Source: Candidatus Altiarchaeota archaeon (GTDB taxonomy: Archaea; Altiarchaeota; Altiarchaeia; IMC4; SCGC-AAA252-I15). From it: DNA of 55,571 bases. The position numbers were made by a program, and so were the translations under genes. Positions 466-17,721 of the stretch are shown here, in pieces. The stretch is from assembly GCA_043804895.1 (NCBI GenBank), contig JAZDIN010000066.1:1-55571 (forward strand), written 5' to 3'. The notes beneath the pieces are model-generated. The model searched no databases and was not told the DNA's origin. It saw only the letters and a program-made list of their open reading frames with translations. The stretch's first letter is position 1. The number at the start of each line of letters is the position of its first letter.

Positions 466-1215
466 ATGAAAAACCAGGAGAGAGGAGACGGAGGAAGATG
501 CCCTACAGGCATCAGGGGATTCGATGAATTAGTAAGCGGGGGCCTGCCACGTGCAAGGACCATACTGTTGAACGGGGCATGCGGTACAGGGAAGACTGTT
601 TTTGCGACGCAGTTCATCACCAACGGCATCCTCCACCATGATGAGCCTGCCGTGTTCGTGATGCTCGAACAGGACGCCGGCGAATTCAAGGAGGACATGC
701 GCGGGTTCGGCATCGACCTCCAGAAGATGGAGGACGACGGGAAGCTCGTAATAATCAACGCCAACCTCACCAAGAAGGGGGGCGGCAATTTCTTTGAGCT
801 GAAGAGTGAGACCCACAATATAAGCCCTGAGATGGCGAGCATAGACAGGATAGTGGAGGTCATCGAGGGCGCTGCCAGGAGCATCAACGCGAGGCGGGCT
901 GTGATAGACAGCCTCAGCTCGATGAGCATCTCCTTTGAGGACGCGAGGAGTCTCAGGCGGCTCATCTTAGACCTCAACTACTGCCTTAAGAGGATGGGCC
1001 TCACCACAATCATAATCTCGGATGAGGTGGCAGGGGATGTTACTGAGGCGACTGAGAAATATGTAGTCGACGGGGTCATAACGTTAAGGTATGTTACCAT
1101 AGGCCCGGATCCGGGTAGGACTCTTGTCATCGACAAGATGAGGAGGACCAGACACAGCGAGAACATACACACCCTCAGGTTCTGCAACGAGGGGGTTGAG
1201 GTAACGAATGAGTAA
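466..1215 (+). CDS. KaiC/RAD55-family single-domain ATPase
   Basis: PTGIRGFDELVSGGLP start, Walker A GACGTGKT, VIDSLS, DGVI and KMR motifs; GAGGAG SD upstream. Confidence 0.92.
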   Translation: MKNQERGDGGRCPTGIRGFDELVSGGLPRARTILLNGACGTGKTVFATQFITNGILHHDEPAVFVMLEQDAGEFKEDMRGFGIDLQKMEDDGKLVIINANLTKKGGGNFFELKSETHNISPEMASIDRIVEVIEGAARSINARRAVIDSLSSMSISFEDARSLRRLILDLNYCLKRMGLTTIIISDEVAGDVTEATEKYVVDGVITLRYVTIGPDPGRTLVIDKMRRTRHSENIHTLRFCNEGVEVTNE

Positions 1216-2554
1216 AATGGAAAAACGTGTTGCCTGTGCGTTGGTTCTTCTCCTACTCGTGTGTTTCGCGTCATCCCAAGGTACCTGTGGGGATGGAATT
1301 TGCACGGACTGGGAGAGGTCTGATGGAAACTGCCATGATGACTGCGGGGGGAGTGTTTACAGGACAGTCTGCGGGAACGGAGTCTGCGAGAGGGGTGAGG
1401 AGGGAGTGTGCACCAGAGACTGCGGAGGAGGCAGCGGTGGGGCAGGTTTGACAGTCTGCGGGAATGGCGTCTGCGAGAGGGGTGAGGAGGGAGTGTGTAG
1501 TAGAGACTGTGGAGGAGTATCTCAGCAGGATCGTGCACCTCCGACAGACGAGGAGCTCATTGCACTGGGGAAGATAGCATGCCTCGGAGTGGAGGAAGGG
1601 GGTAAATGCCTCCTCCCAAATGATATGGAGAGTGGTTTAGGGCTGTCAGGCGTCTGCTGCGGTGGCGGCTGCAGTTACAGGAAGACCTCATGCGCCAACA
1701 AGTCAGCTGCTGTTGACAAGCCTGACTTGATTGTGTCGTCCATCGAAGTCACCCCCCAGAACCCGACCGAGGACGTGAAAGTGAATGTGACAGTTAAGGT
1801 TGGAAATATCGGTAAGGCGCCGGTTGCTGGCGGATTCTGGATTCAGTTGAGTGTGGAGGAGGATAGCAGACTATTGGATGAAGACGACTTTGAGGTTAAG
1901 GGCAGAGTGGATGCTGGCGAAACTGTAACCCACACATTCACGGGAAAACTCGGATTCGGGAGGATAGGCTCGTACAGGATGAAAGCCGTAGCCGACAGCA
2001 GCGGATTCGAACACCGGAATAATCTGGTTGAGGAGGCAGACGAAAAAAACAACGTTGGGGTGAGGACAGTGTATGTGGCGCCTGAACAGAGGAGAGAATC
2101 CTGCGGAGATGGTATATGTGGTATCGGGGAGGATGGGTCGTGCGAGAGAGACTGCCGGATTGAGAATAGAACAGGAGGGGTAGTAGACTACTGTGGAGAC
2201 GGATTGTGTAGTAGGGGCGAGGAAGACATTTGCGCACAAGACTGCGGAAAGGAGGAGGGGATTCCAGGGGCTTATATCGTCGTGGGGAGCTTGATTGTTT
2301 TGACAGCTTCCCTGGCTCTTGCAGCCGTAATACTGATACGCTCCAGAAGGAAGGAGACGCCGCGGGAACCCGGGAAGGAGAATGGTTTAGAGGAGTTGGT
2401 GAGGGAGAAGGAGGAGTTGGAGAACATGCTCTCCATCGCGAAGGCAAAATACCACCGGAGGGAGTTGGATGAGGAGAGCTTCAGGGAGATAACCCGGGAC
2501 AAGCAGAAGAGGCTCATAGAGTTGGAGTTGGGGATTAAGAATCGTCAAGGTTGA
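1208..2554 (+). CDS. Secreted, membrane-anchored Cys-rich (CGDGxC repeat) protein with CARDB Ig-like domain
   Basis: Signal peptide, five CG[DN]GxC repeats, PDLIVSSI...VEEADEKNN CARDB signature, C-terminal TM helix and coiled cytoplasmic tail. Confidence 0.85.
   Translation: MSKMEKRVACALVLLLLVCFASSQGTCGDGICTDWERSDGNCHDDCGGSVYRTVCGNGVCERGEEGVCTRDCGGGSGGAGLTVCGNGVCERGEEGVCSRDCGGVSQQDRAPPTDEELIALGKIACLGVEEGGKCLLPNDMESGLGLSGVCCGGGCSYRKTSCANKSAAVDKPDLIVSSIEVTPQNPTEDVKVNVTVKVGNIGKAPVAGGFWIQLSVEEDSRLLDEDDFEVKGRVDAGETVTHTFTGKLGFGRIGSYRMKAVADSSGFEHRNNLVEEADEKNNVGVRTVYVAPEQRRESCGDGICGIGEDGSCERDCRIENRTGGVVDYCGDGLCSRGEEDICAQDCGKEEGIPGAYIVVGSLIVLTASLALAAVILIRSRRKETPREPGKENGLEELVREKEELENMLSIAKAKYHRRELDEESFREITRDKQKRLIELELGIKNRQG
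1363..1517 (+). repeat. Intragenic direct repeat, about 68 bp x2 (1363-1430 and 1450-1517), encoding TVCGNGVCERGEEGVC[TS]RDCGG
   Basis: Near-identical nucleotide copies offset by 87 bp. Confidence 0.9.
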
Positions 2555-3744
2555 GGGGAGTGGGCTACTATCTTCACATAAGCATTCTTGATGCCGCCGT
2601 ACCAGATTAGGTTCACATGCTTTCCGAAAAGTTCAAGGCGGCTTCCGCAGGATATCTCGAAGTCAGCGTTGAAGTCGCCTTTGTACACTGTGAGGGTGAC
2701 CACGGGACCGCGTTGTCCTTTGACTGTGAGGTTCATGCCGTCGTAGGTGGTGTTGGTTAACTGGTCTAGTGTGAGGGTTTTGGCGTCGTGGTATGTGAGG
2801 AGGTCTCTGCCGCAGAACCTTACACCCTCGTGGCTGCCGTATGCGTCTGAGTCTGATAGGGCGTAGACGAGAACATACCCTCCAGGGAGCCTCGTCTCCA
2901 ACACGCCGACTTCTAGGCCATAGTAGAGTATGACATCGCCTTCGGAGGCTTCGATGAACGCTGATTCGTTCTCGTAGATTATCCTCAGCTTAGCCCGCTC
3001 GGACTGGGGTGTGTCGAGGCTGAGCCGGTACCCCCTGAGGCTCCGGTTGCCAAGTCCACCCCCTAGCAAAAGCGCGGTCGCGCCCTCCGGAGTGTTGGCT
3101 CTCACGTATTCGCTTTCTTTGAGAAGCAGCGTCATGGTGATGCCCGGACCTGTTCTTAGGACTTGAGCTTCGAGGCCGTCTATGTATGTGGTGTTTGTGA
3201 AGGTTACAGTCGTCCATTTGTTGTCTGATGTGTTGTAGTCGAGGGTGTAGTGTTCTGTGCCTAGGATGTCTTCCATCCCAGTCATGTAGAATGTGTTGTT
3301 TCCGGCTGTCGCGTATTCCCGCATCTTCAGAAGTAGTGTGGCGGTGGTTGAGGTGGATGTCGTCGTCGTGGTTGTCGTCGGCTTAGGCTTGGCGGTTGTT
3401 GTGGTGATTAGTTTGTCCATGTCTTTTATTGGGACGTTCTCGTGGAGTGTTGTCGTGGTGGTGGATGTGGGAAGTTGTATTGTCATCTTCTCGCCCTCTG
3501 ATTCTACCCCCATCTGCACCCTATCTTCGCCTGTGAGGCAGCCTGAGACGAGGAGGATTAGGATCAACGACCACAGCCTGAAGGCTGTGGTATGATCCAA
3601 GCCAAAGCAATAGCTTTGGCAGGACCCTAAAAGTGCTTTGCACTTTTTCGGATCCTGATAGAGCAGAGGAGGTATACTGGCATTCATCCATATTCTACAG
3701 AGTGTGGTCTCTGCTCTATCTTGGATGAGGTAGGGTAGTCTCAT
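2545..3744 (-). CDS. Putative surface lipoprotein with Thr-rich linker; signal peptide interrupted by a 162-nt in-frame insertion
   Basis: LILILLVSGC lipobox-like motif and poly-Thr stretches. The ORF is open from ATG 3744; an alternative TTG start lies at 3600. Confidence 0.75.
   Translation of the reverse strand: MRLPYLIQDRAETTLCRIWMNASIPPLLYQDPKKCKALLGSCQSYCFGLDHTTAFRLWSLILILLVSGCLTGEDRVQMGVESEGEKMTIQLPTSTTTTTLHENVPIKDMDKLITTTTAKPKPTTTTTTTSTSTTATLLLKMREYATAGNNTFYMTGMEDILGTEHYTLDYNTSDNKWTTVTFTNTTYIDGLEAQVLRTGPGITMTLLLKESEYVRANTPEGATALLLGGGLGNRSLRGYRLSLDTPQSERAKLRIIYENESAFIEASEGDVILYYGLEVGVLETRLPGGYVLVYALSDSDAYGSHEGVRFCGRDLLTYHDAKTLTLDQLTNTTYDGMNLTVKGQRGPVVTLTVYKGDFNADFEISCGSRLELFGKHVNLIWYGGIKNAYVKIVAHSPQP
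3561..3726. mobile_element. Structured palindromic insertion (four-way junction plus a fourth hairpin) flanked by 4-bp ATCC/GGAT direct repeats
   Basis: Stems at 3570-3578/3583-3591, 3601-3608/3613-3620, 3629-3636/3640-3647, 3657-3668/3709-3720 and 3595-3600/3721-3726. Removing 162 nt restores MRLPYLILILLVSGC. Confidence 0.6.
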
Positions 3745-3767
3745 GGTTAAGGATTGGCGGCTGGCGT

Positions 3768-3774
3768 AAAAAAA
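3768..3774 (-). terminator. Oligo-T tract after secY (candidate archaeal terminator)
   Basis: T7 on the minus strand, 4 nt after the secY stop codon. Confidence 0.4.
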
Positions 3775-3778
3775 GCCT

Positions 3779-5170
3779 CTAGTCTTTGCCCATGAACCTG
3801 CGGAACATGGGGCTCATGTCAGCCATCTGCTCCTTCTGTATGTCCTCGTAGAGGCGGTATATGATTCCGACCGTCAGGAGTATCCCGGTTCCGGAGCCTA
3901 GGGCGCCCATGAGGTCAGCTACTGTTGCGAGGAGGCCGACTGCTATGCTGCTTATTATCGTGAGTTGGGGTATGTATTTGTCTAGCATTGTTTTGATAAT
4001 CCTCCTGTCTGGGCGGAATCCTGGGACCCTCATCCCGCTTTCCTCTATCTGCTTCGCCATGGTCTCGGAGTCTAGGCCGGTGGTCTGGCACCAGAACTGG
4101 CCGAATAGCACGCACAGTCCGCAGAACACTAGGAGGTATATTGCGAGGTGGAGGAGTATGGAGAGGTCTGATAGTACGTACCAGTTCTGGGGTTGTAGGA
4201 CGCTGTATAGGTTGCCGAGAGTCAGGTATTTTGCGATGGTGTAGACGATGTTCTGGAAGAATGTCATCCCCTGTGTGACTCCTGACTCGACGTCGACTCC
4301 GACAAGGCTGGTCCACATCCTCAGGTTCATGAGGAGCGCGGATGCGAGTATGACGGGGATGTTGCTTATGTAGAAGAATCTGAGTGGGATTCTGCCTCCG
4401 ATGCCTCTGATGTTCCCGTAGGAGAGTGGTATCTCTATGCGCATGGCTTCACCGTAGACGACGACTGCGAATACTATGACTGTGGCTATGATGGGGGCGA
4501 GTAGTATCAGGTCCATGTTGCCGCTCATCATCTGGGAGAGGAAATTGGGTATGTAACCGGAGTATGCTAGGCCGCCTGAGCCTTTCAGCGGGTTCAGGGA
4601 TCCTGTTATTATTGTGTGTGAGACTCCGCCTGCGATGAAGAGGGATATTCCTGAGCCTATACCCCATTTGGAAACTGTCTCGTCCATGTACATGAGCAGT
4701 ATCGACCCTAGGGCTATCTGGAATATGGTGAATGCTATGAGGGCGGTCCCTTCCACCATGTGGGTGGCGTAGACTAGGGCGCCAGCCTCGAAGAAGGCTA
4801 TTAGTATTGTCAGTATCTTCTGGGTCCCCTGGAAGAGGGCTTTGCCTTCCTTCGTCTTCAGGTCTATTTTTATCATCTCAGCGCCGACGAGGAGCTGGAG
4901 TATGATTGAGGCTGTGACGATGGGGCCTATGCCGACTGATGTGAGGGTGCCGATGCTGCTTGCGAATATCATGGTCATCTGTTCGAAGCCGCGTATGTGT
5001 TCTGACAGTTTCTCTGGTGTGACGCCGTATGGGTAGATGACGCCCATCACGTAGAATAGGACTAGGACGATGGAGGTCCAGGTGAGCTTCTCCTTGAACG
5101 GGACCTTACGGTTTGGTATCTTCACCTCAGGCATGTATTTGAGGAGCGGCCTTACGAACTCAAGGTCCAT
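3779..5170 (-). CDS. secY: Preprotein translocase subunit SecY
   Basis: GIGPIVTASIILQLL, KWGIGSGISLFIA, PGFRP and GTGILLTVGI motifs; follows uL15. Confidence 0.99.
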   Translation of the reverse strand: MDLEFVRPLLKYMPEVKIPNRKVPFKEKLTWTSIVLVLFYVMGVIYPYGVTPEKLSEHIRGFEQMTMIFASSIGTLTSVGIGPIVTASIILQLLVGAEMIKIDLKTKEGKALFQGTQKILTILIAFFEAGALVYATHMVEGTALIAFTIFQIALGSILLMYMDETVSKWGIGSGISLFIAGGVSHTIITGSLNPLKGSGGLAYSGYIPNFLSQMMSGNMDLILLAPIIATVIVFAVVVYGEAMRIEIPLSYGNIRGIGGRIPLRFFYISNIPVILASALLMNLRMWTSLVGVDVESGVTQGMTFFQNIVYTIAKYLTLGNLYSVLQPQNWYVLSDLSILLHLAIYLLVFCGLCVLFGQFWCQTTGLDSETMAKQIEESGMRVPGFRPDRRIIKTMLDKYIPQLTIISSIAVGLLATVADLMGALGSGTGILLTVGIIYRLYEDIQKEQMADMSPMFRRFMGKD

Positions 5171-15916: not shown

Positions 15917-17721
15917 GCCTTATCACTCAGTTTAAGTTTAGGTACTACGCACATTCCCATGAGCTCGTTCAAGAGGAGCTTGAACGCGTACGCCATCTCC
16001 ACAGGGTATGTGGGGACTTCCCCGCATAGGGGGCAGTATATCTGCCTCCTTTCGACGTCGTTGACTGCGACCATGCCGCATTTACCGCACACTGGGACGA
16101 CGACCTTGTCTGATTCGTCCAGGAGTCGGTCCTTGAGCATCATCGACGCGCCGTGGCCGATGAGACAATCTCTTTCCATCTCACCGAATCTGAGTCCGCC
16201 CTCCCTAGCGCGGCCTTCGGTCGGCTGTCTTGTTAGCATCTGGACCGGCCCTCTTGATCGTGCGTGGACCTTGTTAGCGACCATGTGGTGGAGCTTCTGA
16301 TAGTATGCTATCCCTATGAATATCTCAACTTCGAATTTTTCTCCTGTGGTTCCGTTGTAGAGGACTTCCTTCCCGGAGTGGTGGAATCCGTACTTCTTGA
16401 GCGCGGCCCTCAGGTCGTCCTCCTCCTCGTTTGAGAAGGCTGTCCCGTTCACGAACCTGCCTTCCATGGCTCCGACCTTCCCGCCCACCATCTCAAGGAC
16501 GTGGCCGATTGTCATCCTCGATGGTATCGCGTGGGGGTTGATTATGATGTCAGGCACTATGCCGTCTTTTGTGAATGGCATGTCCTCCTGCGCCACAATG
16601 AGGCCGCAGACTCCCTTCTGGCCGTGCCTTGAGGCGAACTTGTCTCCGAGCTCTGGTATCCTCATGCTTCTGACCCTGACTTTCGCGAGCTTGTTCTTCT
16701 CGACAGTCTCTGTGAGTACGACGCAGTCTACGACGCCTGATTCCATGTGCCTGACTGTGGTGGAAGTCTCCCGCCTCTTCTCCTCCACTATACCGTATGG
16801 TCCGATTTCCTCTAGGAATCTAGGAGGCGACGTTCTCCCAATAAGGACCTCGCCTGAGCCGACGTCGGATTCTGGGTAGATGAGGCCTTCAGGTCCGAGT
16901 TTGGTGTATGTGTCATCGGCTTGCGCGCCTTCAACCTCAACTGATGGCACCTCGAAGCTGTCCTTCTGTCCGCTCGGGTAGCGGCGCTCCTCAGCAGTGT
17001 ACGTCCTGTAGAACGTCGAGCGTCCTAGGCCGCGCTCCACTGAGCCGCGGTTGAGGACTACGGCGTCTTCCATGTTGTAGCCCTCGTAGCTCATGATTGC
17101 GACAACGAAGTTCTGGCCTGCAGGCCTTCTGCTGTATTCGATTGAGTCTATTATGTCGGTCTTGACGAGCGGGGTCTCAGGGTAGTGCAGTACGTTAGCC
17201 CTGCTGTCAAGTCTTGAGAAGTAATTTGAAGCGTACAACCCGAGCGTCTGCTTCGCCATCGCAGCTGCCATGGTTACCCTCGGCGAGGAGTTGTGCTCCG
17301 GCCAGGGTGCGAAGCATGCGCTGATTCCGAGCATCAGCGACGGAGTCAGCTCAAGGTGCGTGTGTTCAGGGTTCAGCTTGTACTCCCTCATCGCGATGTA
17401 AGCCTCCTCTTCCTCTTCGGCGTCTATGTATTCTACTATGCCCTGCTCCACTAGGTTCTTCCACTGTATCGTTCCGTCCCTCAGGTCCTTCAGGTGCTTT
17501 TCTGTGAAGTTGGGCCTGCCTTCCTCGATGATGGCGAGTGGCCTGAGCGTCCTGCCCTTGTCTGTGTAGACTTGGACTTCGTTGTTCTCCTCATGGAAGC
17601 TTATCGACACCGTAGGATGAATCTTGTTCTGTCTTCGCAGGTCGCGGAGTTTCTTCGCCAAGACCTCGGGGTTCTTGTGCTCCCCGATAAGCCGCCCATT
17701 CAAGTAGACTACAGTTGCCAT
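15913..17721 (-). CDS. rpoB1: DNA-directed RNA polymerase subunit B' (Rpo2C)
   Basis: [19 protein letters not shown] and [12 protein letters not shown] motifs; start MATVVYLNG. Confidence 0.99.

Follow-up and report, generated by a model that had tools for sequence, protein, structure and literature searches.

The stretch of DNA analysed here (the window) is the 55,571-nt contig JAZDIN010000066.1 of a Candidatus Altiarchaeota archaeon. Coordinates without a contig label are positions in this window, G000 designates the source genome, and G000 to G040 are the genomes of the same order that were compared. On the minus strand, secY (3779-5170) is followed by a 34-nt spacer with a T-run and then by the ATG (3744-3742) of a lipoprotein gene, the signal sequence of which is split by a densely paired insert. 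The ATG is followed by AGA CTA CCC TAC CTC and a first ATCC (3726-3723). The paired stretch ends with ...GTTGATCC, and after the second ATCC (3564-3561) the gene goes on with TA ATC CTC CTC GTC TCA GGC TGC. Deletion of 162 nt in silico gave MRLPYLILILLVSGC, and the open reading frame (ORF) 2545..3744 on the minus strand (399 aa) was found open across the whole insert. A sequence-only reading had described a 162-nt, in-frame, stop-free insertion that splits a signal peptide; re-reading of the sequence and the ORF found this description to be exact. We consider it probable that the insert is a non-autonomous derivative of an insertion sequence (IS) of the IS200 group (IS200/IS605), namely a palindrome-associated transposable element (PATE), inserted in frame in the lipoprotein signal, and that the precursor is read through from AUG 3744. 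The features of the locus are the following.

3779..5170, minus strand: secY, ORF of 463 aa, the upstream neighbour, named from sequence reading and synteny
3767..3775, minus strand: T-run CTTTTTTTA, which may act as a TATA box and lies about 27 nt ahead of ATG 3744
3742..3744, minus strand: ancestral start codon in a conserved context, with MRLP... as in the G001 orthologue MRLPVACVTLMLVLSGC
3723..3728, minus strand: left flank TCATCC, the putative T-N-ATCC target and left cleavage site, part of the gene and not of the element
3561..3722, minus strand: predicted composite PATE, AAG...TTGATCC, 162 nt, made up of left end, nested module and right end
3657..3722, minus strand: module A (left end), with a 12-bp outer stem (3720-3709/3668-3657) and the conserved GGATGAATGC at 3689-3680
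3595..3651, minus strand: module B, 57 nt, a double hairpin (AAAAGUGC/GCACUUUU and GCCAAAGC/GCUUUGGC) with GGAT...GGAT flanks
3561..3598, minus strand: module C (right end), with the candidate guide GGATCA (3598-3593), the hairpin 3591-3570 and the terminal TCGTTGATCC, which stops 10 nt past the hairpin foot
3598..3600, minus strand: TTG within the element and in frame with the gene; as an alternative start it would yield MDHTTAFRLWSLILILLVSGC
3538..3561, minus strand: hydrophobic core and lipobox LILLVSGC; an ending in ..SGC, ..AGC or ..CGC is kept in 11/12 homologues examined
2545..3537, minus strand: mature Thr-rich surface lipoprotein, intact

Because ATCC is repeated at both edges, the boundary of the predicted PATE can be slid by up to 4 nt.

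The folding of the insert was analysed by a helix check and by free energy calculation. All helices named in the sequence-only reading turned out to be perfect: 3726-3721/3600-3595 with 6/6 pairs, 3720-3709/3668-3657 with 12/12, the two-part hairpin 3656-3621 with 7/7 plus 8/8, and the hairpins 3620-3601 and 3591-3570 with 8/8 and 9/9 pairs, respectively. GGAUCA (3598-3593) and UGAUCC (3566-3561) formed 6/6 pairs, and the internal guide was, as had been claimed, complementary to either junction and not to both at once. The inner hairpin of module A (3707-3688) is degenerate, with 6/8 pairs as judged by eye. The minimum free energy (MFE) of 3540-3760 on the minus strand was -89.6 kcal/mol versus -52.5 +/- 4.3 kcal/mol for 200 shuffled controls, none of which was as low (z = -8.67; 0/200), so that the fold held up in the comparison that the same reading had proposed. 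As the MFE structure contains the GGAUCA/UGAUCC pairing and lacks the outer AUCCAA/UUGGAU stem, the proposed four-way junction is one of two exclusive alternatives. Its helices all exist, but the energy minimum selects the other alternative, which the reading had foreseen. When the 162 nt were shuffled, 1110/20000 sequences (5.6%) were free of stops in the frame of the gene. For random inserts of the same composition the chance of an open frame combined with a length divisible by 3 is thus about 2% (5.6% x ~1/3).

An empty site became visible in the homologues. Five syntenic orthologues, each located directly downstream of secY, carry a signal of about 16-19 residues before the Cys and no insert (N-termini MRLPVACVTLMLVLSGC, MRWAVLAIVLVIVGSGC, MKAAWPLLLTIILLSGC, MRLLALILALTCFCGC and (V)RALPLLVAVIVLAAGC). 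A short lipoprotein-type signal was also found in 5/6 non-self database homologues, the remaining match (P0007) having no recognisable signal. Altogether, the insert is absent from 12/12 homologous proteins examined, where P0004 and the G006 orthologue are one protein counted in two rows; the orthologue comparison suggested earlier thereby revealed the empty site at the protein level. The mature lipoprotein showed full-length similarity to six database homologues (32-52% identity) and to the five genomic orthologues, which are without stops, and a Pfam scan of the lipoprotein assigned it to no family. A T-rich run 25-30 nt before the start, followed by ..ACC ATG/GTG, is present in G000 and in 5/5 orthologous loci, and no GGAGG-like, i.e. 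Shine-Dalgarno (SD)-like, motif precedes the start in any of these six. The conserved T-run suggests a promoter and a leaderless mRNA beginning at AUG 3744.

G000 contains about 20 copies of a modular repeat, the insert among them. BLAST of the insert against its own genome, another of the checks proposed at the outset, identified two further full-length copies (C25:21149-21314 with 87% and C47:14549-14711 with 83% identity), at least seven short copies without the middle 57 nt and many partial or diverged ones; a profile search of G000 added diverged subfamilies. The short form of about 105-109 nt consists of module A (long hairpin, inner hairpin, GGATGAATGC) and module C (the CCACAGCC hairpin). 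Common to the aligned copies is a left edge of T-N-ATCC, after which the element begins with AAGATAGAGCAG..., and a right edge of ...CCACAGCC-loop-GGCTGTGGTCGTTGAT(YY). The left ATCC and the T two bases upstream of it are invariant in 10/10 aligned copies, and the bases at -1, -3 and farther away vary. At the matching right position CC occurs in just 2/10 copies and the right flank is unmatched in 8/10. A fixed left ATCC together with a variable right flank fits a target and not a duplication. The two ends share just about 6 imperfectly inverted bases (ATCCAA / TTGAT), and there are no long terminal inverted repeats (TIRs). With respect to genomic context, 11/12 copies occupy short spacers between genes, frequently right next to a stop or start codon, and the window copy is the sole one of the 12 demonstrably within a coding sequence. 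A manual count of orientation relative to the neighbouring genes (4 on the same strand, 5 on the opposite one) showed no bias. The other two long copies contain stops in all three same-strand frames (0/6 open), which indicates a family not built for translation or splicing.

Several further observations were made on this family. Diverged subfamilies in G000 (C25:13375-13466, C35:4981-5065, C40:16873-16957 and 16970-17045 in tandem, C7:28884-28965, C56 at about 4150-4212) have other stems, a left-end core ..AGAATAC-hairpin-GATGAATG.. and a right hairpin ATAAATA-hairpin-TATTTAT, and are flanked on the left by TTATC, TATAC or similar instead of ATCC. At C3:33372-33476 and C25:148516-148618 the interior of the long hairpin, between the 12-bp arms, is reverse-complemented and the outer edges are unchanged. 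Recombination between the inverted stem arms seems to have flipped the interior, which would leave the left-end hairpin on the wrong strand. At C39:1220, C25:148617, C47:14549 and C20:35073 element termini abut or overlap the stop codon of a neighbouring ORF (distances -1, -2, -1 and 0), and in some copies the element seems to contribute part of that stop codon.

A covariance model of the family was built from 10 copies. It matched 27 places in G000 and, G000 included, 19/41 genomes of the order, from four families. In other genera the stem sequences differ widely and the linkers are conserved (GAATAC/GAAGAC, hairpin, GATGAATGC, ..., (A)TCATAC, hairpin, T.TTGAT/TATTTAT). Among 27 copies from 15 related genomes, aligned by fitting to the model and thus in a way that favours the structure, 90.1% of cells pair versus about 40% with slid partners, and compensatory changes occur in 31/35 pairs, a value reached by 0/500 shuffles. 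The helix between guide and terminus (GGATCA/TGATCC) covaries in other copies, too. Rfam gave a best E-value of 0.42 for the window copy, far below the gathering score, and six loci whose copies are better preserved yielded nothing beyond an unrelated tRNA and sub-threshold matches. ARAGORN found neither a tRNA nor a tmRNA in the window. A search of genome and metagenome contig collections with the 16-mer ATCCAAGATAGARYAG, a pattern too short for collections of that size, returned chance matches only, with 0/234 loci fitting the element profile.

A relationship to IS200-type elements was found around genes for Y1 transposases. The Pfam family Y1_Tnp had matches in 14/41 related genomes. The element model lies directly 3' of the Y1 gene in 7/13 Y1 loci (L280, L282, L283, L285, L287, L288, L289), and in 9/13 the Y1 gene is preceded by the left-end motif. 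The sequence 3' of the Y1 genes, ..ATACC-GCCGCC-TTCA-GGCGGC-GGTCATTCAT.., corresponds to module C (general motif ATACC-hairpin-GGT..TT.AT), and that 5' of them, ..GCAAGGATAC or ..CTGAATAC, a hairpin and GAGGAA or GATGAA, to the core of module A. An alignment of five IS copies, which come from two genomes, runs without interruption from the left hairpin through a gene of about 150 aa with histidine-hydrophobic-histidine (HUH) and Tyr motifs to the right hairpin. Two G020 copies have the longest flanks, and in these similarity is lost just upstream of a shared TTATTAC; the ends of the remaining ones are cut by contig or locus ends. The parent elements seen here are tnpA-only, IS200-type and about 700 bp long. 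No transposase ORF lies inside the 162-nt element, which is too short to encode one. Since both end hairpins, flanks included, correspond to the left and right ends of IS200-type elements with a Y1 gene, we assign the insert to the PATEs. The earlier suggestion of a mobile palindromic element is borne out by a repeat family with IS200-type ends, and its description as new is not supported, as the element belongs to a known kind, the IS200/IS605-derived PATEs.

In three of the IS200-type loci (L280, L287 and L289, from G020 and G018) a long hairpin lies between the left end and the start of tnpA, its 3' arm entering the GGAGG before the ATG. This hairpin could sequester the ribosome-binding site; a similar arrangement is known from Salmonella IS200. 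A search of G000 for TnpB (PF07282) gave no match, and a reading of the insert as an omega-RNA was dropped for this reason.

The geometry of the ends can be compared with IS608. Its transposase binds subterminal hairpins of the top strand and cleaves 3' of TTAC, 19 nt 5' of the left hairpin, and on the right 10 nt 3' of the right hairpin; internal guides base-pair with the cleavage sites, and the element is excised precisely and inserts 3' of its target, which is not duplicated (PMC3201880, PMC5934647). In the family described here the left tetranucleotide precedes the foot of the left hairpin by 15-17 nt, and 10 nt separate the foot of the right hairpin from the 3' end of the element, close to the IS608 values of 19 and 10 nt. 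Subterminal hairpins at both ends and a fixed short 5' target without duplication are shared with IS608 and ISDra2 as far as these are described in PMC3201880, PMC5934647 and PMC5027513, and internal sequences complementary to the cleavage sites are shared with IS608. Differences exist as well. The target is T-N-ATCC: the tetranucleotide is ATCC in the source genus and TTAC, as in IS608, in more distant copies and in the IS themselves. Unlike in IS608, the GGATCA is 6 nt long and lies 2 nt from the hairpin foot, and neither tnpA nor tnpB was found in G000. By eye, 5/6 positions of the internal GGATCA can pair with the left site TCATCC; in the register of the sequence-only reading its partner is ATCCAA instead. 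Copies of the G000 type combine GAAGAC with the target ATCC and others GAATAC with TTAC or TTAT, which is suggestive of a compensating guide/target pair, the boundaries of the diverged copies being too uncertain to count.

On this basis the following course of events is proposed. The PATE would have retained the left and right hairpins bound by a Y1 (HUH) transposase on single-stranded DNA and lost the transposase gene. Most likely it moved by single-strand "peel and paste" transposition with the transposase acting in trans, and would have inserted immediately 3' of the target T-C-ATCC in codons 6-8 of the lipoprotein gene without target duplication, so that the second ATCC would be the element's own right terminus. 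The pairing of GGATCA with both junctions would be the counterpart of the guide sequences that set the cleavage sites in IS608. With the ancestral promoter and AUG 3744 intact, translation would most likely yield a precursor whose signal has an N-region longer by 54 residues. Core and lipobox are unchanged, and processing at the lipobox Cys would release the usual mature protein. An insertion in this coding region was probably tolerated because cleavage at the lipobox would leave the mature protein unaffected, and it would have survived because the frame stayed open, which looks like a selection filter. The features that appeared odd at the outset would all be accounted for, the hairpins as predicted binding sites of the transposase, the repeated ATCC as target plus right terminus, and the internal pairing as guide.

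We are aware of several points that speak against this interpretation. A Y1 transposase was not detected in G000, either with PF01797 (0 matches) or by tblastn with three Y1 proteins from relatives (best E-value 0.44), and Pfam found none in the four congeners of G000. Among the 19 element-bearing genomes 13 are without a Y1 match, and 8 Y1 genomes are without an element match; by manual tally both occur together in six genomes only (G018, G020, G022, G023, G031, G036). The G000 assembly is 88.7% complete and split into 71 contigs, and assemblies often miss insertion sequences; among the incomplete genomes compared, it is usual for the element to occur without a detectable transposase. For the window copy taken alone, a 4-bp ATCC duplication is indistinguishable from target plus right terminus. 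The tentative register of the candidate guide GGATCA differs from that of IS608, in which the 4 nt adjoining the hairpin foot on its 5' side form the guide. All in-frame starts lack an SD-like motif ahead of them, and the long precursor and its export are predictions from the sequence. With an inner left hairpin of 6/8 pairs and no enzyme found, the window copy may be frozen and no longer mobilisable.

Alternative explanations differ mainly in the start codon used and in the nature of the mobile unit. The gene might be expressed from a start within the element, TTG 3600 or ATG 3687, the insert being the same transposon remnant; its 3' part would then supply a new N-region (MDHTTAFRLWS...), and the frame open up to ATG 3744 would be a coincidence or yield a short-lived by-product. 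The gene call on record (P0001, 351 aa) begins at TTG 3600, and MDHTTAFRLWSLILILLVSGC offers a charged N-region, a hydrophobic core and a lipobox at a length similar to that of the homologues. Moreover, the signal peptide of Yersinia YPO1552 is described as partly made by a small repeat (PMC2229807). However, the ancestral T-run and start context are intact, a leaderless mRNA would begin at AUG 3744 with ribosomes reading through, and no SD-like motif is found ahead of TTG 3600. An internal start would also have no need of an open frame divisible by 3, which is just about 2% likely by chance. We therefore regard it as a possible but rather unlikely alternative to read-through from AUG 3744. 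A classical cut-and-paste miniature inverted-repeat transposable element (MITE), with short TIRs (ATCCAA / TTGAT), a 4-bp ATCC duplication and a DDE transposase, would explain the ATCC at both edges of the window copy and the weakly inverted-repeat-like ends, and a TIR-based census gave a very high MITE density for Ca. Altiarchaeum hamiconexum (PMC11602168). It is very improbable here, as the left ATCC is invariant in 10/10 copies and the right flank varies, i.e. behaves as expected of a fixed target, and as both subterminal hairpins with their flanks match the ends of Y1-bearing IS200-type elements. A DDE partner with these ends did not turn up in the repeat searches, a dedicated DDE search not being part of them.

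The sequence-only reading had proposed, next to a mobile element, an intron-like sequence or an RNA switch. Exact removal of the 162 nt, by a splicing endonuclease or by self-cleavage, would indeed bring back a canonical signal peptide, a very stable RNA is to be expected, and the two UUGGAUCA pairings between which a switch would alternate are mutually exclusive. Both ideas can nevertheless be given very little probability, less than the MITE. The statement that no bulge-helix-bulge (BHB) motif is present agreed with a BHB scan for intron lengths of 150-174 nt, in which the best candidate for 162 nt reached 6/12 pairs and lay off the junctions. Rfam contained no matching ribozyme, intron or riboswitch, the other copies are intergenic and occur in both orientations (4 on the same strand, 5 on the opposite one), and the other long copies carry stops. 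An excised RNA, furthermore, needs neither a stop-free frame nor a length divisible by 3. An explanation at the level of DNA covers the same pairings, and IS200/IS605 transposition (PMC3201880, PMC5934647) accounts for the guide pairing better than a switch does. Finally, the repeat could have been wrongly joined into the gene during assembly, given a fragmented metagenome assembly (71 contigs) and a repeat sequence. This is the least probable explanation, to the point of being negligible: the window copy differs by at least 13% from every other copy, and the flanks are two in-frame halves of one signal peptide, which a chimeric join would not yield.

The interpretation as a PATE places the insert next to several known systems. 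PATEs of Haloquadratum walsbyi and Natronomonas derive from IS200/IS605-type transposons (Dyall-Smith et al. 2011, PMC3119063). They are defined there as having near-terminal IS-like palindromes and a conserved targeting oligonucleotide on the 5' side, and as lacking inverted terminal repeats, a target duplication and the space for a transposase; a cognate transposase is not part of the definition, and for Haloquadratum C23 that account gives only tnpA pseudogenes. The family in G000 likewise has no room for a transposase, no long TIRs, no duplication, IS-like palindromes, a 5' target and numerous heterogeneous copies. Intact tnpA, not found in G000, is by the same account scarce in Haloquadratum too. 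Unlike in those PATEs, the lineage is Altiarchaeota, the parents seen are tnpA-only elements of about 700 bp and not tnpB (IS1341)-bearing ones, and the window copy lies in frame inside a coding region. In-frame insertion of a small palindromic repeat that does not destroy a conserved protein gene is shared with Rickettsia palindromic elements (RPEs), the YPAL/RU-2 repeats of Yersinia and the coding repeats of Methanocaldococcus jannaschii, as reviewed in PMC2229807, and YPAL even contributes part of a signal peptide. Those families as a whole keep open frames and often sit in genes, in contrast to 1/12 copies demonstrably in a gene here. Of the Rickettsia parallel drawn in the sequence-only reading, the in-frame insertion therefore holds, and family-wide open frames and recurrence in genes do not. 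Repetitive extragenic palindromic (REP) sequences, bacterial interspersed mosaic elements (BIMEs) and REPINs (REP doublets forming hairpins), together with their REP-associated tyrosine transposases (RAYTs), are similar in being intergenic hairpin repeats related to Y1/HUH enzymes. A REP is just one hairpin of 20-40 nt headed by GTAG or CGTC, and its RAYT is domesticated and present as a single copy, whereas the unit here is left end plus right end of a mobile IS200-type element. BHB introns in archaeal mRNAs exist as well, e.g. in cbf5. Like the insert, they interrupt a protein gene, and taking the insert out would bring the reading back to that of the homologues, but the insert has no BHB motif, is a multi-copy and mostly intergenic repeat, and is in frame and stop-free. 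PATEs, the mechanics of IS200/IS605 and in-frame small palindromic insertions, including one that forms part of a signal peptide, are already in print. We found no description of this particular repeat family in the literature searched, the supplementary lists of PMC3119063 and PMC11602168 being outside that search.

Within the composite, module B requires separate consideration. It is located between CAGGAT and CATACC in 3/10 aligned copies and exactly absent from 7/10, in which CAGGAT is directly followed by CATACC. A pattern search of G000 returned the three copies nested in long elements and one chance-like match. Unrelated double-hairpin modules of like size and shape, two hairpins plus a short closing helix, were found in element copies of G001, G002, G007, G031, G033 and G036, mostly just 5' of CATAC and the right hairpin, others within the left hairpin. 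The stem CCAAAGC also occurs in the hairpin before tnpA of L280, which had prompted the idea that module B is a remnant of the IS core. This was provisionally set aside because the stem differs in other IS copies and the unrelated modules sit at different positions. The GGAT...GGAT flanks of module B are the complement of the element's own ATCC target, and its site is the guide region 5' of the right hairpin. On the opposite strand its termini are the same as those of the host element (ATCC, the boundary, AAG-hairpin ... GATCC up to the boundary). A tentative and, in our view, distinctly doubtful proposal is that module B represents an undescribed class of ultra-small mobile DNA preying on IS200-type ends. 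If it hijacks the guide-target pairing, it would be a hyperparasite of a transposon. PATEs are described as often hit by small repeats themselves, and SMR-A repeats target PATEs in Haloquadratum, their mobilisation being left unexplained in that account (PMC3119063); SMR-A on Haloquadratum PATEs parallels module B on the present element.

Some further observations concern other features of the locus and of the genomes. The convergent neighbour of the lipoprotein gene (1208-2554, plus strand) encodes a Cys-rich protein of 448 aa with repeated CGNGVCERGEEGVC-like motifs, a CARDB domain (Pfam E-value 3.6e-12) and a C-terminal membrane anchor, and with its stop it reaches 10 nt into the 3' end of the lipoprotein gene. 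A separate repeat family in G000 consists of a CCGCAGCC-loop-GGCTGCGG hairpin preceded by a conserved ..GAGCGTATTTGGAAT.. (C44:11770-11806, C41:5199-5230, C11:45717-45752, C3:44760-44783, C3:52371-52403, C61:1761-1791, C62:16860-16878). In G013 (L271, contig C75) a tRNA match at 428-550 on the minus strand spans 123 nt versus 71 positions of the model, which implies an insertion or intron of about 50 nt in this tRNA; an element copy lies close by at 793-908.

For the archaeal order, the results name a source for part of its abundant hairpin repeats, i.e. ends of IS200-type elements that persist as PATEs in 19/41 genomes. The lipoprotein gene offers a clean natural case in which an insertion of 54 codons would be tolerable in the N-region of the cleaved signal peptide of a conserved secreted protein. 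The nested double-hairpin modules are the part most worth further work. If module B does prey on the IS200-type ends, the composite would be the frozen record of a three-level conflict and, at the same time, a reversible, precisely excisable insertion in an export signal.

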